Of a stretch of DNA of 32,000 bases, positions 8,722-27,500 are shown piece by piece (position 1 is the stretch's first letter; each line of letters begins with the position of its first letter). The translations under genes and the position numbers were made by a program. The stretch is from Pyrobaculum aerophilum str. IM2 (GTDB lineage: Archaea > Thermoproteota > Thermoprotei > Thermoproteales > Thermoproteaceae). Under the pieces are notes generated by a model. That model was not told where the DNA came from and did no database searches. It worked only from the letters and a program-made list of their open reading frames with translations. The stretch spans positions 1,890,001-1,922,000 of the forward strand of contig NC_003364.1 of the NCBI RefSeq assembly GCF_000007225.1, given 5' to 3'.

Positions 8722-9654
8722 GTTTCAACTATCTTTATGATTGATTTCTGGTGTCGTTGAGTCCAGGTACTATTAGGCATTTCTTGCCCTGGCGCGTTTC
8801 AACTATCTTTTGATTTCTGGTTGATTTCTGGGCAAAAAGGAGTCATGCCCAAAAAGCCAAAAAACCCAATACTGTTTCAACTATCTTCTGATTTCTGGGA
8901 TGTTTACTTTCTGGTACAGAGCAAGGATGTCGAAGTATTAAGGATACGCATAGAGACAAAAGATGTGTTTCAACTATCTTTTGATTTCTGGATTATGAGG
9001 CCCTTAATTCTCGCCGGGCCTCCAAAGGCGGGGTTTCAACTATCTTTTGATTTCTGGACAGTGCTCTATATCGAGGGACGCGGTAAACTGAAGTTAAGTT
9101 TCAACTATCTTTTGATTTCTGGTACTCCTATTGAATTTCTGCCGAGCAGTTTTGCCTCTATGAGTTTCAACTATCTTTTGATTTCTGGATATTTATCTTG
9201 TTTGCGCTCGCATGAGTAGAGTGGAAACTGTTTCAACTATCTTTTGATTTCTGGTGGTGTAGATAACAGAGAATTATTAGATACGCTCTTTGTTGTTTCA
9301 ACTATCTTTTGATTTCTGGATATCAATGGCAGGAGGCCGAGCAACATGACTCCTATCGCCGTTTCAACTATCTTTTGATTTCTGGATCAGGCCCGACAGA
9401 CTCATAGTCGTAACGGACAAATACCTGTTTCAACTATCTTTTGATTTCTGGATAGTGGTGGAAAAGTGATTGTAGTCACTTGGGACGCAGAAGTGTTTCA
9501 ACTATCTTTTGATTTCTGGCTTATTCACTGATATCCGCTTAAGTTACCACGAGCCAGCGTTTCAACTATCTTTTGATTTCTGGCAAGCTGGCCGGCAGGC
9601 ACCCTGCGGCCTTGGATAGAATTATACAAGTTTCAACTATCTTTTGATTTCTGG
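8722..9654 (-). CRISPR. CRISPR array, 14 repeats of 25 nt. Plus-strand reading is GTTTCAACTATCTTTTGATTTCTGG; the transcribed sense is probably CCAGAAATCAAAAGATAGTTGAAAC.
   Basis: Repeats start at 8722 (degenerate, 5-nt insertion), 8796, 8874 (1 mismatch), 8967, 9033, 9098, 9164, 9230, 9295, 9361, 9427, 9495, 9559 and 9630. Spacers are mostly 39-46 nt and all differ. The minus-sense repeat ends in GTTGAAAC, resembling the ATTGAAAG-type 5'-handle of crenarchaeal crRNAs. The degenerate repeats are all at the 8722 end, which is therefore the trailer. Confidence 0.97.
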
Positions 9655-14040: not shown

Positions 14041-14116
14041 GCGGCGGTAGTCTAGCCTGGTTTAGGATGGCGGCCTGCCAAGCCGTTGATCCCGGGTTCA
14101 AATCCCGGCCGCCGCA
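14041..14116 (+). tRNA. tRNA-Gly (anticodon GCC), no intron, CCA encoded at 14117-14119
   Basis: Hand-folded cloverleaf. Acceptor stem GCGGCGG/CCGCCGC; D stem GTCT/GGAT; anticodon stem GCGGC/GCCGT with loop CTGCCAA; 5-nt variable loop; T arm CCGGG-TTCAAAT-CCCGG; discriminator A. TTTAAAAA lies about 40 nt upstream and a T5 run is at 14122-14126. Confidence 0.93.
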
Positions 14117-14251
14117 CCACGTTTTTCTCCCTCAAAAAACTAGCACTTGCGTTCGCGTCTCTTCACGGACGAAAACGCAACTCTTCCCCAGAATTTCAAA
14201 AACACTCTTTAGGCGGCGCTAAAGCTGAAATACTCGTATTGTCTTAGCGGC

Positions 14252-15253
14252 GTGGGAGTTGAGATCTGCCGCTCTCTCCTTGAGTGCTTGGGCGCGCTGG
14301 GGCGCTCGCAGAGGCTTTACGCGGCGGCTGGCCTTGTGGACGAGGAGGGCCTTGAGGCGGCGTCAAGGGCGGCGGGGGAGCTGAGGGTTTTAGTCGGCGA
14401 CTCGGGACCTGTGCCCAGACCTGTGTACGAGAGGTGGAGAGAGGTGGTGCGCGTCTACCCAAGCCTCCACGCTAAGTTCTACATCTTTGCAGAGGACGCA
14501 GGCCCCTCAGCCGCCTTAGTGGGAAGCGCCGACCTGACAGCCGGCGGGCTTAGGGGGAATTTAGAGGCGGTAGTCTTAATCAGGGGGGAGGCCGCCCGCC
14601 CCCTCGCTGACATGTTTAACAGGCTGTGGGCCAGGGCGCTCCCGCTGACCGAGGACTACGTGGCCGACTGGGAGGGCCCGGAGGAGGCGCTCCGGAAGCC
14701 TTGGGGGGAGGCCGTTAAGCGAGCCAACGAGAGGCTGGCAGAGATCCTCGGCGTGAGCGCGCACTGCCTCTCCCGGCACGACCCGCTGAACTGCGCCAGG
14801 CTGGTTGCCAGGGCTGTCCGCTCCCGGTTTGAGGGTTGCGGGGATCTGCCTGAGAACTGCGCCGCGAGGGCGACCGGCGTTAGCGCCAAGGCCCTCCTCT
14901 CTGCGCCGCCCTCAGCGGTGCTGGCGGGGCACTACGTCTGCTGGGCCAGGGCGCTGGCCGCCAGGTTACTAGAGGGCAAAGTAGGGCGCTTGGACAGCGG
15001 AATGGAGGCGTACGAGGCCGCTGTGCAGGCTGGTGCCGAGAGTTGCTGGGGAGAGGCAAAGAGGGCGGCGGAGGAGGAGCTGGAGAGGCTGGAAGACAGC
15101 AACTACAGAGACAACTACGTGAGGTGGCCAATACCCTACAGGCTTCTCTTCCTAGCGATGACTCTGCCTGCTACGGGTTGCCGCATATTGGGCAGAGAAG
15201 TGAGGACAAAGAAGAGGGGTGTAGCCAGAGTGGAAAGGGAGCTCTACTGCTGA
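14252..15253 (+). CDS. PLD-superfamily (single HKD motif) nuclease-like protein with an Ala/Arg-rich C-terminal extension
   Basis: HKD-type motif LHAKFYIFAEDAGPSAALVGSADLTAGGLRGNLE (14468-14566), i.e. HxK...GSxD/N-LT...N-E as in PLDc_2/Nuc-like nucleases. The gene is very GC-rich and has a GTG start. Its 3' end overlaps the convergent 670-aa gene by 10 nt. Confidence 0.7.
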   Translation: MGVEICRSLLECLGALGRSQRLYAAAGLVDEEGLEAASRAAGELRVLVGDSGPVPRPVYERWREVVRVYPSLHAKFYIFAEDAGPSAALVGSADLTAGGLRGNLEAVVLIRGEAARPLADMFNRLWARALPLTEDYVADWEGPEEALRKPWGEAVKRANERLAEILGVSAHCLSRHDPLNCARLVARAVRSRFEGCGDLPENCAARATGVSAKALLSAPPSAVLAGHYVCWARALAARLLEGKVGRLDSGMEAYEAAVQAGAESCWGEAKRAAEEELERLEDSNYRDNYVRWPIPYRLLFLAMTLPATGCRILGREVRTKKRGVARVERELYC

Positions 15254-17256
15254 GGCGCTTGAGGACACAGCATTCTTAAAAACATAATAGCCATTCTCTT
15301 GGACACTTTCATCTCTTCGTGAAGCGGCGGATAAACGCAGAGATTTCTCTGCATTAATACACGCCGCTGACACCCATCACTACAGCTGGGAATGTGGCGA
15401 GGCCACACGTACTGCAGAATTTTGCTACTGCTCTGTCCTGCACTCGCGCCAATGCCTCTAATTATGTCGCGTAACATAAACCTGAATATATCCCTCGGCG
15501 GAGTTACTTCCTGCGGTCTGCGTTTGAGTTCTTGGTCCAGGCTTGAGGCGAGCTGGTCTTGCGCGGCTATAACGCGGTACATCCTCTCTACGCGCCTACT
15601 CTCCTCCTCCCACGCGCGCTTGCATGCGTCCCTGGGCGAGCCGCAACCGCCGATGTCCTGCAGTAGTTTGCCCAGCACACTTGACAGATCCTGACAGTTC
15701 ATCATACTAGTCCCTTTTAAGTCGTATACTGTGATCTCTACTTCAGCCACACTGTTTAAACTGGTATTGACCTCTATATTAAACAATCCGTCTATGTTGA
15801 GGGGCTCGTAGCTCTCCCACCCGAACATGGCGCAGTTAAGCATAGGTAGCTTGCGCGGATTCAGCTTCACAGCGATCCTTTCGCTGAACTCATCCCGGCC
15901 GAGACCTGCTGACTTGCCTAGCAAGTGCGCAACGCCGTGTGAGCCGAGAAGAATTGCAGAGAAGGCGAGCGTGTCATAAAGGGTCAGCGCGGCGAAGAGC
16001 TCTTTGCTTCGCGATTCTATTAATCTGCACTCAAGTCTGCCCGTATACTGAAATCGCGTCATTAAACAGCTTCTAAAGTCGTTCGGCGTCTGCGAGTTCT
16101 CTATACAGTCTGTAAAATAATCTATCCACCGCTGGCGCTCCTGGCTTATACTAAGATCTCTGCACTTATATTTTACTACCGCATTTTGCCACCTCTTTAA
16201 CAGACTTCTGAGCCCTCCAGAGCCGCTGTAATTAGCACCACTTCCGTATATCTCGCTGTATATGCCTAAAATTCTGCTGATAATGGGGGTTGTGATTACA
16301 ATTTCTCTTCCAAATATAGATGCGCTGATTTCCCTCTCGGTTACCCAGCGTCCGCAACCAAAGGCCCTAAAAACACTTCCAGCAACGACGTTTTGCAACA
16401 GCAACTTCACGGCAACTTTCTTATCGCTGTCTAGCAGTACGCTCCGTACATTACTGTATAGGAGGTCGTCAGAGATGTTCAGCTTGATTCTATAATACTT
16501 TGCGCTTGGGTGCAGTGTTCTGGGACTTGAGCTACCGACAATGTCGTAATGCACTACCACCGGCAGATAAGCGGCTCTATCTTTTGTCCTCAGCGAAATA
16601 AGCGATCCCATATAGATAGCCTCAACAACGGCTTCTCCTAACTCCAGCGTGCCGCCCAAACACTGAGAACGGCTGAAGGAAGAAACCTCGTCAACAAAGG
16701 CTTTGCCAAACACATTCAGCTTCTCAACTGCATCAACCGTCGCCGTAAAGCTCCAAGATGCGTGTCTTCCCGATATGGTTAGCTGAAATCTTTCACTCCT
16801 ACCTTTTGCAAGCGGAATGTTTCTTGTTATTGCAACAATCCACGGTTCTCCCCGCCTTCCAAAATTCTTAACTACGGCGTATGTCTGACTCTCTGACTGT
16901 CTCTCGCTACAAGAGGTTAAGAACAGCACGGCGTAACTGAGCCACCCAGCTTCGCCGTTGCGGTATACATAATATCCGCATATGTCGAAATTACGGCGCC
17001 CTGTACTGCTTCTGCAAAGCCCGCACAGCCTGTCTGCAAGATAGTCAATATCAAAAGACACGGTATATGTAAACTCGGCAACAGGAGACTGATCAACTGC
17101 AACAGCTGATCCTCCTTGTTGCGCGGGTGTTAATTCTCTTATTTCCGCTTGTCTTAAGACTGTTAGGATGAGTACGTTTACGTTGTCTTGTCTGGTGATG
17201 CTTCCGCCGACAAGGTAGAACCTGTTGCCCCCGTAAGCCGGCAAGTATATTTTCAT
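15244..17256 (-). CDS. 670-aa Cys-rich protein, partner of the nuclease-helicase. The C-terminal half resembles DUF1998 (MrfA/DrmB-type Zn-binding domain).
   Basis: Its ATG overlaps the stop of the upstream 1287-aa gene (ATGA, 17253-17256). These elements occur in the order I recall for DUF1998: SHGVAHLLGKSAGLGRDEF, then ITVYDLKG, then GGCGSPRDAC, then CSDGCQRRVLMQRNLC...LHEEMKVSKRMAIMFL. This has not been verified by an HMM. Confidence 0.8.
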   Translation of the reverse strand: MKIYLPAYGGNRFYLVGGSITRQDNVNVLILTVLRQAEIRELTPAQQGGSAVAVDQSPVAEFTYTVSFDIDYLADRLCGLCRSSTGRRNFDICGYYVYRNGEAGWLSYAVLFLTSCSERQSESQTYAVVKNFGRRGEPWIVAITRNIPLAKGRSERFQLTISGRHASWSFTATVDAVEKLNVFGKAFVDEVSSFSRSQCLGGTLELGEAVVEAIYMGSLISLRTKDRAAYLPVVVHYDIVGSSSPRTLHPSAKYYRIKLNISDDLLYSNVRSVLLDSDKKVAVKLLLQNVVAGSVFRAFGCGRWVTEREISASIFGREIVITTPIISRILGIYSEIYGSGANYSGSGGLRSLLKRWQNAVVKYKCRDLSISQERQRWIDYFTDCIENSQTPNDFRSCLMTRFQYTGRLECRLIESRSKELFAALTLYDTLAFSAILLGSHGVAHLLGKSAGLGRDEFSERIAVKLNPRKLPMLNCAMFGWESYEPLNIDGLFNIEVNTSLNSVAEVEITVYDLKGTSMMNCQDLSSVLGKLLQDIGGCGSPRDACKRAWEEESRRVERMYRVIAAQDQLASSLDQELKRRPQEVTPPRDIFRFMLRDIIRGIGASAGQSSSKILQYVWPRHIPSCSDGCQRRVLMQRNLCVYPPLHEEMKVSKRMAIMFLRMLCPQAPQQ

Positions 17257-20200
17257 AGTGTCTCGTATCTGTCTGTCTTCAGGGGAGCTGATTTCAGATA
17301 CGCCTCTCTAAGCTCTCTGCTCCGCCTCCTAATACCTCCGCTTTCTACTGTGTAGTGAGCCAGCGAGTATTCAATTATGCGCGGATCCGGCATTGGCGGC
17401 ACAAACGTCAGCTGAAGCAGTATCTCCCTTGTCCTCCATCCGCTGTAGCTTGGTGCCCTAGGAAAGTACTGCAGTATCAACTCTCTAGCAACGTGTAAAG
17501 CGTCTCTCACATAATCGCGCACAATATTGTAAATTCTTATATCATTGTTAATAAAACATTTTGAAAGATCAGGTAAAGAATCAAGTTGTGACAAAACATT
17601 GCCTAACGTAAAGTAAAGCTCCCAAGAATACTTTAGCGGATCTGTTGCATATATGTTTATTATTTTTGATAAATTTTCATATAAACTACACGTATTATTA
17701 ATATTTTGTAAAACATTTCTAATATTATCAATGTATTGATTTATTTGATTAACAATATCTCTCAAGAGCCGGTGAGCTACTTGCTGCATTGAGCCTCCGA
17801 GCGCTTGAAGTGCGCTACACATTGTTTGAAGTCTCGAAGATATAACATGATACAGCTGATTCGCTTGGTTAGCATCTGAAACTAGAAATTGGAGAGAGCT
17901 CTCTACTACTTTCTCCACCTTGTTTATTACATTGCTGTTTCTAAACCACCCTAATGCTCTGATTGTCGTGTAGGCTATGAGTTGCTCAATGCTTATAATT
18001 CTGCTTTCGTCTCGCGGAAGCACAGGCGTTCGCTTAAAGGCGAAGAGTCTGGCTACGGCGTAGTCCTCGTCAATAAGCGCCACATCCTCCCCAGTATGCT
18101 TAGCAAACAAGATGCCAAGCGCGGTATAGAGAACGGATTTGTCCCTACCCCCGCGGCCAAACCTCTGTATAACGTTTTCTGCAAGCTTGGGAAGACCCAG
18201 CTGGCCCACTGCTCCAACGCCGGTAAGATTAACGCCGAGCTCCAGTGTCGATGTTGAAAGAACTACAGACCATGCACCAGGTCGCTCCAGCTTTTCCTCT
18301 ATACTATACCTTACGTTATCGGACAGATCTGCATGGTGTATCAGCAATGTGTGCCTGTTCTGTATATTTCTGCCGTTATTCCTGATATCACTTATGATAT
18401 CTATAGTAGCATCAATTGCCATATTGTAGCACTGCGGCCCCCTTGCTACCGAACTATCTGAATTATAGGCTCTTTTTGCAGAGCCATATGCGTTATTCAG
18501 CTCTGCCAGCGATGTGCAGAACAGCGTAAGGTGGCTGAAGTCTTCCAGCTCAGCCAGGCTACCAGAGTTGAGGATATTTCTGACTAGATTCAAACCATAT
18601 GATGCTATATTTCCGTTGATCAGATTCATTACAAACGGTTTGGTAACGGTCTTGTCAGATGGAGATCCCTCTTTAAGCACCAGCCTGTCCCTTACATATG
18701 CTTCAACTTCGCTTAGACTCTCTTTGCTGTCAAAAAATATTACGGACGAGAAGTTTCTCAGCACTTCTGCCGAGAGCTTGCGCCTGGCACTTGACGCTAT
18801 CATTAAAGACACCACAGCCTCTTGGACTGTGCCGCTGGGCGACTCCGCGGGATTTGTAAAGACCACCATTGGTGCGGTCAGCTTTGCAACTGTTACAGTA
18901 CTGCCACTCCCTTGGATGCTGCCCAGCATGCTATAGTAGTCTATTGGTTCGACAGCATATTCTTGCACCAGCCTTTCGCCGAGTAGCGCATTAGCGAGAC
19001 TTTCTGAAAACTCCCTTACCATTCTCGGATCGGGCGGCTCCGTTCTCTCAACTGCACCTACAGAGCGGAAGGTAATAGGCGCGCCGCTTGCGTCGCTGGC
19101 TATTCTGTCAGCAAAGGGCAGACCTGAGCTTGTAACTGTCGCGCTTGATAATATTATTGCAGGATACTTTTTCACGTCTCCAAGCAGATAAAGGCGGTGG
19201 AGGAGCGCCGTGAAGAAGTCTAGGTGCTTGGGCTCCAGCATTGTGTGTACTTCATCGATTACTAGCAGTGCAAGACTGTTGGCTAGCTTCTTTGCGCTAT
19301 CAGCGCTCCTCATGAGCATCGAAGACAGCTTATATGGATTGGTAACTATTATTGAAGAACTCAGCGCGTCGTCGTCCTCGCAATCTGTGAACCAGCTTAC
19401 TTGACTGGCCGCTTGATTTGTCCTGCATATATACTGCCCGCCTTGATACTCTAAGCTACCTCTTCCTCCATCGCACCTAAGGGCGCGCACGCCTCCTTGG
19501 GGTCGCCTGCCGCATCTTTTGCTGTCGCCATCTAAGACGGCGAGGCTTATATTCGCACCATGTCTATTAAGACCTTCTACTATGTAGTAAATCTGCTGAA
19601 CTTGTTGCAACGCCAGCTTTTTGCTTGGATACATTATCACAGCTTTGAAACCGTGTAGCGCAACAGCAATTGCAACGATTAAGAACACGAGAGTTTTTCC
19701 AGTGCCTGGAGGCGCCGTCAGAATAATGAGCGGGGAGCGCCCCGATTTTTCAAGCCATGCGGTAATGTTTTCTGCAATCTTTCTTATCGCCTCGTTCTGA
19801 AAGCCGCTTATATTAGTAATCGGCTGTCCTTTTTCATCAAATAGATTACTTACTAATTTATTAATCCAGTTCTCGTTCCATAAATTTCTTGAAAAATAAT
19901 TACTAATTTGATCTACTTTTATGTCTCTGCTACCTATATGATCAATTATAATTGGCAGGTAGTAGGCCTCAAAAGTTCTTCTATTGCCTGGTAGTGCGGA
20001 TATATTACGGATGAGTCTTGCAACTTCTCCGTGGAAAGTTCTGTAGCACCTCTCCGGTCCATTCAGCAACTTCCGCACATCTATCCTAACACCGCGCCTT
20101 CTCAGAGAGTTCAGCAGAGATACATACTCTAACATTATCAGGTAATCATTCCTTGTTACTTGAAATGCCACTACGTAACGTCCGCTGGAATCTATCTGAA

Positions 20201-21116
20201 TTTTCTGAAGGGGGATTCTATATTGATAACAGCTCTTTTCAATGAGCAATTTCTGCGCTTTGAGGTACTCTGCGATCTGCGACGCATTTTGAGAATTAAT
20301 CACATAATGAATGTGTTCCTCTGTAAGTGGCAAATTGTCTCTATGAAGCGTAGTTTGTGAAAGCGCGATGTAAAGAGGTCCGCATTTGACGCACCTAGTG
20401 CCGTGACGCGCGAGACACCACTCAGTTTTAAACAGCTCTTGATATGCAACTTCAGCGCTGGCGGCTCTGACCTGAGCAGTGCCTTGTGCGATATAGCTAC
20501 GCATTTTCTCACGTATTGGACAGTCTGTGTTCCTACATCTGGCGCACTCAGGGCCTGGCTTATACGCCAGCTCTGCCGACGTAGTTGTAGATGCGCCTTC
20601 TTTACGCGCTGTCTCAACATCAATGAATATAAAAAACGGCGTATTTTCTAAGCCCTCCACCGGTATTCCTCTATATACCAGTACGGGAATTACTTCAGGC
20701 GAGCTGAACCTTCTTCTTATCTCCTCTCCATACAGAACAGCTTGCTCGAAATCGGCGATGTAGGATCTTGTAAATCCCCTTTGACAGTACGATTCTTCAT
20801 TTATCTCCGCGAAAGGGTAGCTTTTAATCTCAAGCACGTATATTTTATCAATGCACCTAAGAACAGCGTCAGCAACTCCTCTCTTCACCAATGGGTTTTC
20901 CTCTATGCATTCGCTACCGATTATATCCCTAAATATCCTAACAACACGCGCTACTAGTTCGTCGTGTTCTCTCGACTTAGCCTCAAGCACTTTCTTAGCA
21001 TCCTCAGTAATATCCTCCTTAAAGTGATAACAGTGCAGAAGGCTTCTAATTCTTCTTGCTTCCTCTCTAGCGGCCATCATGACGCACACTAAAATCCAGA
21101 GCTGTTGAACACGCAC
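17253..21116 (-). CDS. 1287-aa fusion protein: N-terminal Cas4/RecB-like PD-(D/E)xK nuclease with Fe-S cysteines, an SF2 DEVH-box helicase, and a long helical C-terminal region
   Basis: Nuclease motifs: C70...D82/D90...VLEIKS (E96-x-K98, nt 20823-20831)...QAVLY (QxxxY)...CARCRNTDC (nt 20520-20546). Helicase motifs: I APPGTGKT (19692-19715), II DEVH (19245-19256), III SAT, then HHADL, V STSTLELGVNL, VI QRFGRGGR (18144-18167). The start is GTG 21116 or ATGATG at 21080. Confidence 0.9.
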   Translation of the reverse strand: MRVQQLWILVCVMMAAREEARRIRSLLHCYHFKEDITEDAKKVLEAKSREHDELVARVVRIFRDIIGSECIEENPLVKRGVADAVLRCIDKIYVLEIKSYPFAEINEESYCQRGFTRSYIADFEQAVLYGEEIRRRFSSPEVIPVLVYRGIPVEGLENTPFFIFIDVETARKEGASTTTSAELAYKPGPECARCRNTDCPIREKMRSYIAQGTAQVRAASAEVAYQELFKTEWCLARHGTRCVKCGPLYIALSQTTLHRDNLPLTEEHIHYVINSQNASQIAEYLKAQKLLIEKSCYQYRIPLQKIQIDSSGRYVVAFQVTRNDYLIMLEYVSLLNSLRRRGVRIDVRKLLNGPERCYRTFHGEVARLIRNISALPGNRRTFEAYYLPIIIDHIGSRDIKVDQISNYFSRNLWNENWINKLVSNLFDEKGQPITNISGFQNEAIRKIAENITAWLEKSGRSPLIILTAPPGTGKTLVFLIVAIAVALHGFKAVIMYPSKKLALQQVQQIYYIVEGLNRHGANISLAVLDGDSKRCGRRPQGGVRALRCDGGRGSLEYQGGQYICRTNQAASQVSWFTDCEDDDALSSSIIVTNPYKLSSMLMRSADSAKKLANSLALLVIDEVHTMLEPKHLDFFTALLHRLYLLGDVKKYPAIILSSATVTSSGLPFADRIASDASGAPITFRSVGAVERTEPPDPRMVREFSESLANALLGERLVQEYAVEPIDYYSMLGSIQGSGSTVTVAKLTAPMVVFTNPAESPSGTVQEAVVSLMIASSARRKLSAEVLRNFSSVIFFDSKESLSEVEAYVRDRLVLKEGSPSDKTVTKPFVMNLINGNIASYGLNLVRNILNSGSLAELEDFSHLTLFCTSLAELNNAYGSAKRAYNSDSSVARGPQCYNMAIDATIDIISDIRNNGRNIQNRHTLLIHHADLSDNVRYSIEEKLERPGAWSVVLSTSTLELGVNLTGVGAVGQLGLPKLAENVIQRFGRGGRDKSVLYTALGILFAKHTGEDVALIDEDYAVARLFAFKRTPVLPRDESRIISIEQLIAYTTIRALGWFRNSNVINKVEKVVESSLQFLVSDANQANQLYHVISSRLQTMCSALQALGGSMQQVAHRLLRDIVNQINQYIDNIRNVLQNINNTCSLYENLSKIINIYATDPLKYSWELYFTLGNVLSQLDSLPDLSKCFINNDIRIYNIVRDYVRDALHVARELILQYFPRAPSYSGWRTREILLQLTFVPPMPDPRIIEYSLAHYTVESGGIRRRSRELREAYLKSAPLKTDRYETL

Positions 21117-21259
21117 TCAATGTTGCCGTGCTACATAGAGCCAAGTAATCAAGTGGCACATCTCTAGCGGCAAAGTTATATATTAAGTTTTTCTGCATAA
21201 ATTACAGCGTTAGATCTAGCCTCTTCTGCCTAAAAATATCTTGCAGTGAGCGCAGACGT

Positions 21260-21952
21260 TCAGACGCGCTCTCGCTTCTGATAGAATACGCACACATTAT
21301 TGGCCAGAGGGCACAGACTGCACTTAGGCGATTTGGCAGTACACACCTTTCTCGCAAAATCTAGCACTCCAAAGTTAAACTCTTTGGCCAGCTCTGGATC
21401 TCGGGGAACGAGAGATCTCGCAAAATTCCAAAGCTCCCTGTCGGTATGAGGCCTCCTCTTTTTAGATTTGATGCCAAACACTCTTTCAATAACCCTTATC
21501 ATATTTCTGTCGAGAAGCGGTTCCGGCTTCCCACACGCCGTAAGGAGGACTTCGGATGCGGCATAGTCGCCCACGCCCGGCAGTGACTTCAAAGCGTCTC
21601 TGTCGCAAGGAATCTGTCCATTAAATCTCCTGACCAGCTCCTCCGAAAGCTTCTTGAGGAGCGTTGCGCGGACGTGCTCCATCCCCAGAGGCTGTATAAT
21701 TGCTTTAATCTCCTCAACACTGGCGTCTGCAAGGCGAGCCGGCGATGGGTACCGTCTCAAAAATTCCCTATATATATCGACAACTTGCTTTACCGTAGTC
21801 TTCCTCAGAAGCAGGGCCGCGACGAGCACAGCCCACGGGTCGCCGGCTTTCCGCCACGGCAGGTCTTTCTCGCCGAATTCTCTATACCACTTAATGATGG
21901 CATCACGGAATTTAGTATAATCTACACCACGTGGTATAAGATCTGAACACAC
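21260..21952 (-). CDS. mig: HhH-GPD/[4Fe-4S] DNA glycosylase of the EndoIII/MutY superfamily, Mig-like (T/G and U/G mismatch glycosylase type)
   Basis: Motifs: LPWRKAGDPWAVLVAALLLRKTT; HhH LPGVGDYAASEVLL, with Tyr where EndoIII has its catalytic Lys, as in Mig; catalytic-Asp segment LLDRNMIRVIERV; Fe-S loop CTAKSPKCSLCPLANNVC. It is adjacent to a C5-MTase, as for Mig.MthI. Confidence 0.85.
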   Translation of the reverse strand: MCSDLIPRGVDYTKFRDAIIKWYREFGEKDLPWRKAGDPWAVLVAALLLRKTTVKQVVDIYREFLRRYPSPARLADASVEEIKAIIQPLGMEHVRATLLKKLSEELVRRFNGQIPCDRDALKSLPGVGDYAASEVLLTACGKPEPLLDRNMIRVIERVFGIKSKKRRPHTDRELWNFARSLVPRDPELAKEFNFGVLDFARKVCTAKSPKCSLCPLANNVCVFYQKRERV

Positions 21953-21992: not shown

Positions 21993-23024
21993 ATGGCCTC
22001 GTTATATATGGCCGTTAGTGTTTCAACATGCGAGCCCTATGTTTCTAGAGCGGTTAAGCAGGACTCCACTCTTGCGATATACGCCGAATACGTCAGCGAT
22101 CTCTGTGAAGGCGCTGTAAGGAGCGGAGACGTAGAACGCTTCTCAAAGCTAGACGAGTGGCTTGAGTGGCTTAAATGGAGCTCCGTCGTTTTGAACCATC
22201 ACGATTACTTAGAGGTAGCAGTGCGTACACTGAGGCTTGCACCATATCTGAGACCCACAGACTATGGAACAGCTAGACAGCGAGATCTGGGTCAGCTGTG
22301 GACCGATGCTATAAGGGGACATTTGGGCGAGATAGCCTTTGCAAAATGGATTAGCGAGAAATTTGGTATAGCCATAGAAACGGGACTCAGCGAGCTTGGT
22401 CCGCTTGAGGAATTTCTACCATCTGATGTAATAAAGGTAAACAACAGGCCTCCACAGCTTAAGGTCAGTATTAAAACTACAAAATTAAGGGGAGTGTGGC
22501 TTGATATTCCGTATAAGCAGATAGATCACAGTGACATTTTTATACTAGTGAGAGTCGGCGTAGCTAGGGAGCATTTCATAGCTTTTCTGAAGGCTATCAG
22601 TGTTATTAGAGACAAAATTCTAGCAACAGCACTGCAACAAGGTATCATAAGTGAAAAAGAGAGCGAGGAAATCTGGAATTTGCTACCCGACTTTAAGCCG
22701 ATACCTGCGTATATTGTAGGTTATTTTGACAAAAGATTGTATATAGATTATATTCAGAGCGAAGACGTTATTGAAGTTGATGGAATCATTGGAACAAGAA
22801 ATATAACAGTTAGAAAGTACTTAGGTTACTGGCATCCCGAAGACAACAGAGTGAAAGAATCGGTTCTCGCAAGGCTGGAACAAAAGTACGGCACAAAGAT
22901 TTCTGGTTACAAAATTCGGTTTGAAGGAATTGGAGATTTTTCAAAAACAAAGCACTTCGTAGTTAGCTCTGGATTTCTAAAACGCACAGAAAGGGATTGG
23001 AGAGAGCTATTAGCTCAGCTGTAG
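21993..23024 (+). CDS. candidate type II restriction endonuclease (PD-(D/E)xK-like); otherwise hypothetical
   Basis: The putative catalytic pattern is GE113IAF ... PSD145VIKV ... KVS159-I-K161 (nt 22329-22475). The gene converges on and overlaps the C5-MTase gene by 10 nt, a typical R-M arrangement. The start could be ATG 22008. Confidence 0.5.
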   Translation: MASLYMAVSVSTCEPYVSRAVKQDSTLAIYAEYVSDLCEGAVRSGDVERFSKLDEWLEWLKWSSVVLNHHDYLEVAVRTLRLAPYLRPTDYGTARQRDLGQLWTDAIRGHLGEIAFAKWISEKFGIAIETGLSELGPLEEFLPSDVIKVNNRPPQLKVSIKTTKLRGVWLDIPYKQIDHSDIFILVRVGVAREHFIAFLKAISVIRDKILATALQQGIISEKESEEIWNLLPDFKPIPAYIVGYFDKRLYIDYIQSEDVIEVDGIIGTRNITVRKYLGYWHPEDNRVKESVLARLEQKYGTKISGYKIRFEGIGDFSKTKHFVVSSGFLKRTERDWRELLAQL

Positions 23025-24406
23025 AAATCTGCTAAAATTCTGGCCAGCGTCTCCGCTATCTTCATAGCCGCCAGCGGCGGCACAGCCTCTCCAATTTGCG
23101 CCCTTATCTGCGTCTTTGAACCGTAAAAGAGGAAGAGATCGGGAAACGTCTGGAGCCTAGCCCTCTCCCTCAATGTCAGAGTCGCCCTGTCTCTGTCGTA
23201 ATGATAGCCGTGAGTTCCGCCGCCGCCGTATGCCACTACAGTATAGGCAGGTATCAGCGGATGCAACCTCCTGTAGATTAGGCTGATGCCTCTCCCCTTT
23301 ACTTCCCACTTTGTCCCTTTGACAAACTCGTGGTTTTCGCCGGGCGGGATCCGCTTCATCCGCTCTACTACCTCTGTACTGTCGTCGGGGGGGTCGGTCG
23401 TGCCGTCGGGAAGTTTTAGGAGGCTGACAGGCGTGTTGTAGTATCCGAGAAGCTTCAGCACCACCTCGTGTTCTCTAAATGCGGCGTCTAGCTCCTCACT
23501 GTCAGTCCTCTGCACTCCATTCAGCCTTAAATAGTCTTGGACTGCGTCAAAAGTCAGATCGTCCCACACTTTCTGCTTCCACATGAGAGCGGTTTCTGTG
23601 CCCACTTCTTCCCACACTCCGCGCCACTTCTCCATAATTTCTCTATACTCTTCCTGCAACTCATCAAGCCTCCTGCCTTCAAAGACTTCCAGCGGCGTGA
23701 GGGGAAATTTTGCAAAAACAGTCTTACGCAGAGCGCGGTCAATTACAGCCCTGGCATGCCAGATCTGCTCCGCAGAGCGGATTAAATCTCGCCTTATGCC
23801 GATTATTATCAGCCTCTCCCTCTTCTGGGGAACGCCTGCGGCCGCAAAATCGACTATATCACTAAATACTATCTCATAACCTTTAACGCCAGCACCTATT
23901 TTCTCTTGCGTCATGATCTCCTTTACCTCTTCCCATCTGGTATTCAGCCTGGCGAAATCTTCGATAATGGTCTTGTACGCAAGGCCCCCGTTCGCGCTCG
24001 TCAAGCCTGGGACGTTTTCAAAGACAAAAGCTTTGGGCTGAAGTACTGCGAGCGCTCTGATGAAGTGGGCATACAGCCTCCCCCTCTTTATCGTTATGCC
24101 GACACGGGCGGGCCCCCTTACAATTGAAAAGTCTTGACACGGCGGGCCGCCGACAACTACGTCAGCCTCTCCAGCTAGCGGCGAAAACAGTACTTTCTCT
24201 ACGTCGCAGGACAGCACAACATTCGGCTCGGCCTCAGTTAAGCCGCCGCACTTCAGCAACTTCATCTCGAAGTTCTTGGCATATGTTGTGGTAGCGTACA
24301 GATTTACGTCATTTGCAAATATTATTTGGTACATTCCGCTCATCTTAAAGCCTAAGTCAAGACCTCCGGCGCCCGAAAAGAGCGAAACGACTCTGAAGGG
24401 TTTCAT
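23015..24406 (-). CDS. DNA (cytosine-5)-methyltransferase
   Basis: Motifs: I LFSGAGGLDLGF; IV GGPPCQDFS; VI FVFENVPGL; VIII QKRERLIIIG; a long variable (TRD) region; IX/X TLRERARLQTFPDLF...GEAVPPLAA. Confidence 0.95.
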   Translation of the reverse strand: MKPFRVVSLFSGAGGLDLGFKMSGMYQIIFANDVNLYATTTYAKNFEMKLLKCGGLTEAEPNVVLSCDVEKVLFSPLAGEADVVVGGPPCQDFSIVRGPARVGITIKRGRLYAHFIRALAVLQPKAFVFENVPGLTSANGGLAYKTIIEDFARLNTRWEEVKEIMTQEKIGAGVKGYEIVFSDIVDFAAAGVPQKRERLIIIGIRRDLIRSAEQIWHARAVIDRALRKTVFAKFPLTPLEVFEGRRLDELQEEYREIMEKWRGVWEEVGTETALMWKQKVWDDLTFDAVQDYLRLNGVQRTDSEELDAAFREHEVVLKLLGYYNTPVSLLKLPDGTTDPPDDSTEVVERMKRIPPGENHEFVKGTKWEVKGRGISLIYRRLHPLIPAYTVVAYGGGGTHGYHYDRDRATLTLRERARLQTFPDLFLFYGSKTQIRAQIGEAVPPLAAMKIAETLARILADFYS

Positions 24407-25177: not shown

Positions 25178-26245
25178 TTGAAACTTTTACCTATCCCCCT
25201 TTTACTTTTATTTACTACTACCTTTATATTTGTATTTTTTCTCGGGGCTATGGGTTGGTTTGTTGCGCTTGGCGTTGACGTAAATAGAGACTACTTGGCG
25301 TTCGGCTGGCTGACTAACGACGCCGACTACGTGGCCTCTGTGCTGGGCGGCTGGGGGATGCACCCGCTTACTAGCTGGCTGTTTGAAGAGCACGTGGAGT
25401 TCGAGGGGCCGCTGGCGTTGGACCACAGCGTCACTGTGCCGGCGGTTAAATACGTGGGGGTTTTAATGTGGCTCCCTGGGCGTAAGAACAGGAGGCAGAA
25501 GCGGTGGCGGAGGCTGGCGTTGGGTAAGCTCTTCGCCCAGCTTACGCCGTGGCTGAGGTTTTTGGCTGACGCGGGGACTCCGGCAGTTGTGGGACTGGAG
25601 GACCTCAGGGGCATGGCGGAGAAGAGGGGCATCCACGAGATTGAATACGCCAAGATCTGGAAAAAGGCCATGGGCTCCTTCGGCGCTTTGCTCAAAGAGG
25701 GAGACGGCTACCGAGCTTACGTGGGCAGGGGGAGGTCTGTGGTCATCGCGCTCGACCCGAGGGGCACTTCGTCCATATGCGCTATATGCGCCGCCGAGGG
25801 GAAGACGACGCCTGTTAAGGAGAGGCCCGACAGAACCGTCTACTGTCCAATACACGGCGCCATGAACCGCGACATTAACGCGGCCTTTAACATTGCCATT
25901 AGGGCCGTGAGGATCTACGCGGGGGATCCGCCGGGGGGCGCCCGCGGGGGACTAGAAAATCCCCAGCCGCGGGTGCTCCCCACGGGTCTCCCGCGTGATG
26001 ACAGAGGAGTACAAGATGCGCACGGAGATGAGACCGTAGAAATCAGGCAGGCGCCGAGGCTAGACTACCGCCGCAACCCACACCTGAGAGCGCCCCCCGG
26101 CGCCCTATACGCGTATTTGGAGGAGGTATTTAAATGTTTCGGCTGTGCTGAGGGATTTGGCGTTGCGCCGTCGTTAATCGCGGCCTTCTCGAGCCCGTCT
26201 GGAACCGCACACACGCCTGTTTTTTCGCCCCATGTGGGCGCATAA
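25178..26245 (+). mobile_element. tnpB: IS200/IS605-family TnpB (OrfB) remnant: RuvC-like core retained, N-terminal about 150 aa missing, aberrant C-terminal read-through
   Basis: RuvC-I ALGVDVNRDYLAF; RuvC-II VVGLEDLRGM; zinc finger CAICAAEG...CPIHG; RuvC-III NRDINAAFNIAIRA. The first roughly 30 codons are low-complexity (LLLLFTTTFIFVFF). About 110 codons follow the normal C-terminus. No TnpA and no obvious IS ends were seen. Confidence 0.8.
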
Positions 26246-27500
26246 AGTCGCGGCTAATTCTAGGGAGGAGTTTGTAAGCGTTTTGCTGTCGCGTAAGTTT
26301 TTCGGCCTGGATTTGTCAAGGGGGGTTGTCCTCCTGGAGCGCAGGGCTGACCACCCCTTTGTCCCCCTGGGGAAAGAGAGGCGGCTTAGGGTGTGTAGGG
26401 GCTCTCCGCCCCTCCCGGCGGCGGCGTGGCGGGTTAACGGGGAGAGGCCTCTGACTTTTAAGTCAGGCCTGGGGGTGGGGATCTACTGGTTTGAGCAACT
26501 CGGCCTCTTCAAGAGGGGGAGGGAGTGGGCGGTGGCATCTAGCTGTAAGAACAGGCCTCCTTTCTTCGGCTGGGAGAGAGTGGCCGGGTGGGCGGTGGCC
26601 GAGCTCTTGAGGGAGGCGCCCTATTGGCGCTTCTGGCCTCCCCTCAAGGGCCCCGTGGAGGGGCACCTCCTTATTGCCGGCAGTAGCGGGTCGGGGAAGA
26701 CCACGTTTTTAAAGCGCTATCTATCGTGGGTTGGGAAGTGGTACGTGGTGGACCTCACAGAGGAGGGGGAGTACGTGGGGCTTGCGGCAACTGTGGAGGG
26801 CTCTGTGGACTTGGCCTCTCTCAACGCCGAGGAGCAGGCGCTTCTCTACAGCCTAGGCGTGGCGGCCACTGTGGGGGCGAGGGAGGCCGCGGTCTCCGCC
26901 GTCCAGCTGGGCGCCTTGAAGCTCTTGGCCCGCAGGGGGCTGGGCCTCGACGGCCTTTTAGAGGAGCTGCGCACGGCGGGGGACATCCCGCAACTGACTA
27001 GAGAGGTTTTGTTCACAAAACTGTCGGCCGCTTGCGAGGGGTTTGAGAACGGCAGGTGCAGGCCGCACCCGGCGTTGACGAAAGACGTCGACTTGCCGCC
27101 TCCGCCTGCTGTTATTAGAGTGAGCCCCTCCAACCTGCTCGTGGCGGCTATAGTCGCCCACGGGGTTTTGGCCAAGTTGCTCAAGAGAGGCGGCGTTTTC
27201 GTGGCCGTGGACGAGTACCACAAAATTGCCCCGAGGCTCCCGGTGGAGGACCCTGTGGAGAGGGCGTTGAGAGAGGGCAGGCACCGGGGGGTGGCCTTGG
27301 CCGTGGCCACTCAGAACCCCCTGGACGTCAAGGAGTCTTTGGCGTCTGTGGTGGGGAACTACGTGTTTTTCAACTTGGCGGGACCCGCGGCCCGCTTCGC
27401 CGCCGAGGTTTTAAACGTGCCCCAGTGGGCCGTGGAGTCGTTAAAGCCCGGCGAATACCTGGCCAAGTTGCGCCATGGCCCAGCGGCGGGGGCTGTTTAG
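26232..27500 (+). CDS. HerA/FtsK-like P-loop ATPase (DUF87-like)
   Basis: Walker A HLLIAGSSGSGKTTFL, Walker B VFVAVDEYHKIAP, sensor-like AVATQNPLDV. The gene is very GC-rich. Confidence 0.75.
   Translation: MWAHKVAANSREEFVSVLLSRKFFGLDLSRGVVLLERRADHPFVPLGKERRLRVCRGSPPLPAAAWRVNGERPLTFKSGLGVGIYWFEQLGLFKRGREWAVASSCKNRPPFFGWERVAGWAVAELLREAPYWRFWPPLKGPVEGHLLIAGSSGSGKTTFLKRYLSWVGKWYVVDLTEEGEYVGLAATVEGSVDLASLNAEEQALLYSLGVAATVGAREAAVSAVQLGALKLLARRGLGLDGLLEELRTAGDIPQLTREVLFTKLSAACEGFENGRCRPHPALTKDVDLPPPPAVIRVSPSNLLVAAIVAHGVLAKLLKRGGVFVAVDEYHKIAPRLPVEDPVERALREGRHRGVALAVATQNPLDVKESLASVVGNYVFFNLAGPAARFAAEVLNVPQWAVESLKPGEYLAKLRHGPAAGAV

Follow-up and report, generated by a model that had tools for sequence, protein, structure and literature searches.

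In a 32,000-nucleotide stretch of the Pyrobaculum aerophilum str. IM2 genome (assembly GCF_000007225.1, contig NC_003364.1, positions 1,890,001 to 1,922,000, hereafter the window), a minus-strand open-reading frame (ORF) at 17253..21116 encodes a large helicase with a nuclease module at its N-terminus. The assignment of residues ~13–208 to a Cas4/RecB-type PD-(D/E)xK nuclease domain is well supported, and we consider it likely that this RecB/Cas4-type module is catalytically competent and, through its fusion to an Lhr/YprA-like motor, part of a reel-and-cut enzyme in a methylase-linked defence cluster. Residues are numbered on the longest ORF, 1287 amino acids (aa) from a GTG at 21116, which lies 36 nt upstream of the ATG-ATG where close homologues start. 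Because these homologues begin at M13 of this numbering (homologue P0001 is 1275 aa), the true start is probably the ATG at 21078–21080, giving a protein of 1275 aa; residues 1–12 would then probably not be translated and all residue numbers would fall by 12. The nuclease module spans 20493..21080 (minus strand, residues 13–208) and is followed by a helicase-specific N-terminal region at 19800..20492 (residues ~209–439) and by the superfamily 2 (SF2) DExH helicase core at 18117..19799 (residues ~440–1000).

Within the module, all on the minus strand, C29 is encoded at 21030–21032, H51 at 20964–20966, C70 at 20907–20909, D83 (GVADAV) at 20868–20870, C88 at 20853–20855, E96 and K98 (VLEIKS) at 20823–20831, D122, Q125 and Y129 at 20730–20753 (the latter two at 20730–20744), and C191, C194 and C199 (CARCRNTDC) at 20520–20546. 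An earlier, sequence-only reading had placed an iron-staple nuclease signature at 20517–20921, that is residues 66–200, and the C70, E96-I-K98, Q125-AVL-Y129 and C191-x2-C194-x4-C199 that it listed are all in the translation and all invariant in homologues. Its D82/D90 requires amendment: residue 82 is an alanine, the aspartate being the invariant D83, and D90 is present but not conserved. A word-indexed search recovered 13 full- or near-full-length homologues (39–80% identity) plus one identical copy, and a metagenome scan added four further relatives. Invariant in the 13-homologue alignment were C70, D83, C88, E96, K98, C111, D122, Q125, Y129, C191, C194, C199, C234, H238, C242 and C245, whilst C29 and H51 were missing in P0005 alone, which is N-terminally truncated; conservation of the catalytic D/E/K and of the Cys residues, on which the sequence-only reading depended, is what the homologues display. 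All 11 related loci examined, those with split nuclease and helicase among them, have the pattern C29-H51-C70-D83-C88-ExK-QxxxY-CxxCxnC. When residues 13–260 were shuffled 200,000 times with their composition preserved, the ordered pattern C...D-x10-16-ExK...QxxxY...CxxCx3-6C turned up in 12 of the shuffles.

To assign the module to a family we aligned 22 sequences, comprising 8 helicase N-termini and 14 stand-alone proteins. PF12705 (PDDEXK_1) was matched by 15 of the 22, with a best E of 1.8e-9 and several scores beyond the gathering cut-off, PF01930 (Cas_Cas4) by four, below threshold, and HSDR_N_2 faintly by three. Taken alone, the N-terminus of a distant fused helicase (P0018) scores 23.7 bits, over the cut-off for PDDEXK_1. 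In a PDB profile search with the fused and stand-alone domains the top two matches were Cas4 structures (4r5q, E 1.1e-3; 4ic1, E 9.9e-3), followed by McrC and MGME1, both PD-(D/E)xK enzymes. After allowing for a three-residue tag offset, D83, E96, K98, Q125 and Y129 align in this search on D123, E136, K138, Q149 and Y153 of Pcal_0546, of which D123, E136, Q149 and Y153 are essential for nuclease activity by mutagenesis (PMC4176176). The RecB/Cas4-family motif order proposed earlier, with catalytic D, ExK and QxxxY in succession, is borne out, being conserved and aligned on Cas4 structures, and the invariant H51 completes it as RecB motif I.

The full order Cys-His-D-ExK-QxxxY-CxxCxnC is shared with the iron-staple nucleases of the Cas4/PF12705 type (SSO0001, 4ic1; Pcal_0546, 4r5q; AddB; Dna2), the α-β3-α-β core is that of the Cas4 family, and the stand-alone relatives, at 154–218 aa, are of Cas4-like size. 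Unlike Cas4, the window protein has two extra conserved Cys (C70 and C88), an insert carrying C111 and a mostly x4 spacing, its own sequence lies below Pfam detection, and it has no cas1/cas2 neighbours, no cas genes being found among the flanking ORFs scanned. A bona fide cas4 was sought in the window for comparison, and the upstream ORFs scanned that had Pfam matches were housekeeping genes.

The predicted fold, a line of evidence independent of these sequence links, is of the same class. A first AlphaFold2 model of residues 13–300, built from 12 sequences, was poor (predicted local distance difference test score, pLDDT, 55.8), and its top Foldseek match was ACE1, an Argonaute-associated Cas4-family protein. 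A domain-only model of residues 13–208 from 22 sequences reached a pLDDT of 85.4 and a predicted template-modelling score of 0.79, and its topology, α-β-β-β-α-β-β, is the canonical restriction-endonuclease or PD-(D/E)xK core. In this model α1 (residues 38–66) carries H51, β1 (71–73) is immediately preceded by C70, β2 (84–87) has D83 at its start, β3 (91–98) has E96-x-K98 at its end, a clade-specific insert helix (107–113) holds C111, the helix that follows (119–136) carries Q125 and Y129, β4 (141–148) and β5 (161–164) come next, and two short helices (189–193 and 202–207) bear the C-terminal Cys. In the fused clade the insert with C111 is 13 residues long. With the PD-(D/E)xK core topology of the domain model, the predicted fold is restriction-endonuclease-like, as the sequence-only reading had supposed, and Foldseek agrees qualitatively with modest scores: almost every named match is a PD-(D/E)xK nuclease, usually from the RecB/lambda-exonuclease branch, the PDB list consists mainly of lambda exonuclease, AdnAB, MGME1, AddAB, RecB, NucS, Hjc and cap-snatching endonucleases, and eight BFVD matches fall below E 1e-3, where the named top matches are mostly PD-(D/E)XK endonuclease-like, DUF2800 or RecE-type proteins.

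One N-terminal and three C-terminal Cys (C29; CxxCxnC) are conserved in all complete homologues, which is the arrangement of the iron-staple nucleases. This part of the sequence-only reading stood, whilst C29 is a likelier N-terminal ligand than the C70 that it had chosen. In Pcal_0546 the cluster ligands are C64 and C200/C203/C209, with a conserved H94 near the metal site (PMC4176176). The spacing from the N-terminal Cys to this His is 30 residues in Cas4 (C64–H94) and 22 in the window protein (C29–H51), and that from His to Asp is 29 (H94–D123) and 32 (H51–D83), respectively. The N-terminal Cys of Cas4 and AddB sits in a 'CP' context, and C29 usually stands in L-x-C-P-x-F/Y in fused and stand-alone members alike, the Pro being replaced by Tyr in the window protein. 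C70 lies 13 residues before D83, where Cas4 is without a conserved Cys, and was judged the less likely N-terminal ligand on spacing and CP motif. Because its spacing parallels Cas4 and because of its CP motif context, C29 is favoured, and the staple is more likely to comprise C29 and C191/C194/C199. C88 ends β2 in the model, where the aligned stand-alone proteins have a Cys at D+3 instead, and C70 and C88 make up an additional conserved neighbouring pair flanking β1 and β2. The C-terminal Cys spacing ranges from x3 to x5, being x4 in most members and exactly the Cas4-like x5 in P0032. We infer that the four-Cys site would hold an iron–sulphur (Fe–S) cluster rather than another metal.

Several results pull the other way. 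Residues 1–300 of the window protein, searched directly against Pfam and PDB sequences, gave no match; the link to Cas4 and PDDEXK_1 is transitive, with marginal direct PDB profile E-values of about 1e-3 to 1e-2; and Foldseek template-modelling scores were only 0.3–0.5, those against the PDB being 0.3–0.43 with no match below E 1e-3. Six conserved Cys (C29, C70, C88, C191, C194 and C199) leave the ligand set ambiguous. Furthermore, Cys-to-Ala mutants of Pcal_0546 and SSO1391 lost the cluster and kept nuclease activity (PMC4176176), so that catalysis need not depend on it. An alternative, in our view rather unlikely, is that the PD-(D/E)xK fold is real and the Cys bind zinc or form disulfides, so that the module is an ordinary RecB-like nuclease whose Cys site is structural. 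Disulfides are common in cytoplasmic proteins of hyperthermophilic Crenarchaeota, and this alternative draws on the six conserved Cys compared with four in Cas4, on the position of C70 and C88 at adjacent β1/β2 ends and on the usual C-x2-C-x4-C spacing, which differs from the C-x2-C-x5-C of Cas4. Zinc-binding modules are moreover abundant in YprA-family defence helicases (PMC12458937). It has to be set against the 1+3 Cys arrangement (N-terminal CP motif, C-terminal CxxCxnC-P), which matches that of iron-staple nucleases (PMC4176176), and against the exact x5 spacing in P0032.

In distant relatives the nuclease is a gene of its own. The stand-alone genes P0022 and P0027 lie directly upstream of, and overlap, a DEAD/Helicase_C gene of 1144–1281 aa; in the P0022 loci (L006–L007) a 656-aa gene comes after this helicase gene. 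Between L006 and the window the helicases align from window residue 223 on (E 1e-48), and the 656-aa L006 protein is homologous to the 670-aa ORF that follows the helicase in the window (E 7e-20). Because solo nuclease genes precede homologous helicase genes in these relatives, the nuclease is, judged from gene arrangement, a separable module that is either fused or separately encoded, and this fusion/fission pair sets a domain boundary at about residues 205–223 that is useful for construct design. The sequence-only reading had noted a second Cys cluster, C234-x7-C242-x2-C245, following the nuclease motifs. It is present as C234-x3-H238-x3-C242-x2-C245 (20382–20417, minus strand) and invariant in the close clade, yet it lies outside the nuclease module, in the helicase-specific N-terminal region, which in split homologues forms the beginning of the helicase protein. 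Some distant relatives retain C234, H238 and C242, C245 occurs in the close clade only, and in P0018 all four are missing.

The motor to which the module is fused has intact helicase motifs (I, PPGTGKT at 469; II, DEVH at 621; III, SAT at 658; VI, QRFGRGGR at 984) and is an SF2 DExH helicase by its DEAD, ResIII and Helicase_C domains and its DEVH motif. The claim of a fusion to an SF2 rather than a superfamily 1 (SF1) helicase was therefore correct, and in this the protein differs from AddB and Dna2, whose nucleases, as in the RecB type, are joined to SF1 helicases or helicase-like domains. Among solved structures the nearest are those of Lhr (5v9x, E 7e-14) and MrfA/YprA (6znp, E 4e-9); 9tu7, a DEAD/DEAH-box helicase of 2108 aa that may be DruE, follows (E 1.6e-8). 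The motor is an Lhr/YprA-like DExH helicase. PADLOC returned partial matches to SngC, BrxH, DpdJ and DrmA, the last (E 1.3e-9) spanning RecA2 only, and for the L006 relative DpdJ (1.2e-20) and DrmA (2.8e-12). Shango (SngC), BREX BrxH, Hachiman HamB and Cas3 were rejected as assignments, their matches covering generic helicase motifs only.

That such a fusion is unusual, as had also been claimed, is overstated. A PD-(D/E)xK nuclease N-terminally fused to an SF2 motor is standard in type I HsdR. Cas4-like PF12705 nucleases linked to YprA-like (COG1205/DUF1998) SF2 helicases in defence islands were already reported in 2017, together with UvrD-Cas4 fusions beside Dcm and Vsr (Hudaiberdiev et al. 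2017, PMC5704561). The split relatives L006–L009 share the exact two-gene form of these pairs, whereas in the window the nuclease is fused to the helicase N-terminus and the DUF1998-like part, if it is one, is a separate downstream protein; the hosts here are thermophilic Thermoproteota-like archaea, those of the published pairs bacteria or mesophilic archaea. An N-terminal Cas4-type fusion on an Lhr/YprA-like helicase is undescribed in the papers searched, where the combination appears as a neighbouring gene pair only. The layout of a nuclease N-terminal to an SF2 motor is shared with Cas3 and type I HsdR and suggests a reel-and-cut mode of action. Cas3, however, has an HD nuclease and the window protein no HD domain, and the PD-(D/E)xK domain of HsdR has no Cys cluster and works with HsdM/HsdS, genes for which are absent from the window.

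The gene downstream of the helicase (15244..17256, minus strand) encodes a partner protein of 670 aa. The two genes overlap by 4 nt, at the helicase stop and the partner start, and a partner gene is found downstream of every homologous helicase. The partner has no family match. Its C-terminus contains the motifs 'LGAHGxxH', 'VYDLxG' and 'SC-x-DGC-x-LC...C...SK-x-x-A' (the last also written WPxxxxSCxDGC...C...SK), which resemble DUF1998/MZB, and on these motifs it may be a divergent DUF1998/MZB domain. In place of the C-x-DGC-x-[LI]-C of all six homologues, the window partner has CSDGCQRRV; it is thus without the third Cys of the putative four-Cys motif, as is a metagenomic copy of 100% identity (P0035).

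Convergent with the partner gene is a gene for a phospholipase D (PLD)-family protein (14252..15253, plus strand) with the HxK motif LHAKFYIF, which matches PLDc_2 and, weakly, DrmC. On the other side of the helicase lie genes for an HhH-GPD/EndoIII-type Fe–S DNA glycosylase (MutY/Mig-like; 21260..21952, minus strand), a type II restriction endonuclease (21993..23024, plus strand; PADLOC PDLC03411, E 5e-116) and a C5 cytosine DNA methyltransferase (23015..24406, minus strand), giving the order PLD(+), partner(−), helicase(−), HhH-GPD(−), endonuclease(+), methyltransferase(−). The C5 methylase is kept near the helicase operon in related loci, with the glycosylase beside it and with PLD homologues also retained beside it, whilst the restriction endonuclease occurs in the window and L015 only. 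In L015 the order is PLD-like, restriction endonuclease, C5 methyltransferase, HhH-GPD, a gene that we call X422, an nSTAND NTPase, nuclease-helicase and partner; L001, L003 and L013 have this order without the endonuclease; L005 follows the order of L001 with a fragmented PLD gene; L012 and L014, at contig ends, hold part of the gene set only; and L006, in split form, has an nSTAND gene (1080 aa), two small genes, the solo nuclease, the helicase and the partner.

Most relatives carry two extra genes between glycosylase and helicase (7117–10004 in L001). X422 encodes ~420 aa without a family match, and the other a 533–540-aa NTPase (nSTAND3/nSTAND_NTPase5) with a weak PADLOC 'mad8' match. By tblastn neither is present in the window, where the glycosylase–helicase gap is ~140 bp (21117–21259). 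As for the PLD genes, the canonical HxK...GSxD (LHAKFYIF...VGSADL) is found in the window protein only; ~45%-identical homologues in the STAND-carrying loci (L001, L003, L013, L015) read GH[AV]GNLYI...GGAPL and, from these motifs, are probably catalytically dead.

This gene set invites comparison with known helicase-based defence systems. YprA-family helicases form the core of DISARM, Dpd, Druantia, ARMADA, BRIGADE and TALON; in these the nucleases are C-terminally fused or encoded downstream, no Cas4/RecB-type nuclease is mentioned, and DISARM is the branch with a separate OB-CON-DUF1998 protein followed by a PLD gene (Bell et al. 2025, PMC12458937). DISARM (DrmA, DrmB, DrmC, DrmMII) shares with the window a large DExH helicase followed by a separate large partner with a Cys-rich C-terminal motif, the window cluster also holds a PLD-family gene and a C5 methylase, and there are weak matches to DrmA, DpdJ and DrmC models. 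In contrast to DISARM, the partner has no significant DrmB/DUF1998 match and the window PLD protein is without the N-terminal 4-helix bundle layout; nor are an N-terminal Cas4-like nuclease, a STAND NTPase with a ~420-aa protein or an HhH-GPD glycosylase components of DISARM. The gene layout resembles DISARM without establishing membership in it. The protein would function like other members of the YprA-type helicase-nuclease class, to which a Cas4-type nuclease at the N-terminus, a STAND NTPase and a glycosylase would be new.

A broader reading, which we put forward tentatively and hold to be less probable than its negation, is that these genes are the core of an undescribed, DISARM-related archaeal defence system, comprising a DrmA-like helicase with an N-terminal Fe–S Cas4-type nuclease, a split DUF1998-like partner, a STAND sensor lost in the window lineage, and a C5 methylase/glycosylase pair. 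The DrmA and DrmC matches count against the reel-and-cut reading in its defence cluster in being weak and partial, the PLD HxK motif in being degenerate in relatives, and the partner in several ways: MZB (PF09369) was matched weakly by one of seven partner homologues (E 0.083), hhalign against a DUF1998-type motif gave a faint probability of 18%, and two profile searches of the PDB and a PADLOC search, the latter also with the C-terminal part, found nothing. In addition, the methyltransferase, endonuclease and glycosylase could be an independent type II restriction–modification (R-M) unit in the same island. Extended to the whole neighbourhood, this becomes an alternative, less likely than not, in which nuclease-helicase and partner are a self-standing two-gene effector and the methylase, endonuclease, glycosylase and PLD genes an unrelated, co-migrating R-M module. 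The split relatives L006–L009, which are without methyltransferase, HhH-GPD and PLD genes, fit such a picture, as do the complete type II R-M trio in the window and L015 and the different gene order of the window. What speaks for linkage instead is that, although gene order is rearranged and the proteins are ~40% identical, no more than ~10 kb separates the PLD-like, methyltransferase and HhH-GPD genes from the helicase, and that four of the five methylase-bearing related loci have no type II restriction endonuclease gene and still keep the C5 methylase and glycosylase; the methylase in these loci would be an orphan unless it serves the helicase system.

The nuclease-helicase family is very rare and patchy, and its ecological reach is small. 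An exhaustive profile search (residues 13–300) of 1.84 billion representative proteins returned 20 proteins in all, namely three family members, three distant large helicases (P0015, P0016 and P0018) and 14 stand-alone proteins. No relatives were found in 185,579 GTDB species genomes, scanned twice, or in a scan of IMG/VR, and word-indexed searches with profiles of the domain and of the partner yielded almost nothing new. So far the family is limited to metagenomes and metagenome-assembled genomes, with one homologue named Pyrobaculum. This distribution bears on a further explanation, in which a housekeeping role in DNA repair or end resection takes the place of an immune one and the helicase-nuclease is an archaeal analogue of AddAB/AdnAB, of MrfA-MrfB or of an Lhr-nuclease pair; we regard it as quite improbable. 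In its favour, the nearest relatives of the helicase core are Lhr and MrfA/YprA, both repair helicases, resection of DNA ends is an activity of Cas4-type nucleases (PMC4176176), and the adjacent glycosylase gene would reflect a repair neighbourhood. Set against this are the rarity and patchiness of the family, the position in a segment of lower G+C near a tRNA gene, a CRISPR array, an R-M system and a TnpB-like gene, and the STAND NTPase and C5 methylase in the cluster of the relatives. The glycosylase itself has another explanation, as HhH-GPD glycosylases adjoining C5 methylases are a known Vsr-equivalent, and PADLOC files this one as a type II nicking endonuclease.

Returning to the reel-and-cut reading, the window protein is probably a self-contained unwind-and-cut enzyme of a rare defence cluster linked to a DNA methylase. 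Its active site would consist of H51 (motif I), D83 (motif II), E96-x-K98 (motif III), D122 and Q125-x3-Y129, whilst the four-Cys site of C29 and C191/C194/C199 would tie together the N- and C-terminal ends of the module, as the staple does in Cas4, AddB and Dna2. The module is fused to the Lhr/YprA(DrmA)-like DExH SF2 motor at its N-terminus, and the motor in turn is translationally coupled to the ~670-aa partner, maybe the split-off OB-CON-DUF1998 'canopy' of DrmB. Loading on 3' single-stranded DNA is described for DruE, a YprA-like helicase-nuclease (PMC13192584), and by analogy with MrfA, Lhr and DruE the motor here may load on single-stranded or 3'-tailed invader DNA and move 3'→5'. The Cas4-like nuclease would then cut the threaded DNA in cis, much as Cas3 does with its HD domain or AddAB with its nuclease, so that the 'processive DNA-degrading effector' of the sequence-only reading is plausible. 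Self would be told from non-self by methylation, the linked C5 methylase marking self DNA and the HhH-GPD glycosylase repairing the T:G mismatches that arise from 5-methylcytosine deamination; the PLD-like protein and, in relatives, the STAND NTPase would be accessory or regulatory.

If the broader, DISARM-related reading is true, the protein would be the first YprA-family effector with an N-terminal iron-staple nuclease domain. An active enzyme would join a Cas4-type Fe–S nuclease and an SF2 Lhr/YprA-like motor in a single polypeptide, would add an N-terminal RecB/Cas4 module to the nuclease repertoire of the YprA-family defence helicases (DISARM, Dpd, Druantia, ARMADA), and would offer biochemistry a compact thermostable helicase-nuclease.

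The G+C content at about 16–25 kb of the window is 41–52%, compared with 55–64% in the flanks. A tRNA-Gly(GCC) gene (14041–14119) lies immediately upstream of the PLD gene, and the first 18 nt at its 5' end recur, inverted and without mismatch, at 26057–26074. Together with the lower G+C, this suggests that the segment between the two is an acquired or rearranged island. The inverted copy is within a TnpB/Cas12f-like ORF (TNB domain; 25178–26245), followed by a 422-aa P-loop protein (26232–27500) with weak FtsK/AAA_22 matches, which is unrelated to X422 (no tblastn match). An orphan CRISPR array with ~14 repeats (Rfam CRISPR-DR26) occupies 8796–9654, and the ORFs flanking it that have Pfam matches encode CDC48-like AAA, Hsp20, ThermoDBP, THUMP-SPOUT and radical SAM proteins.

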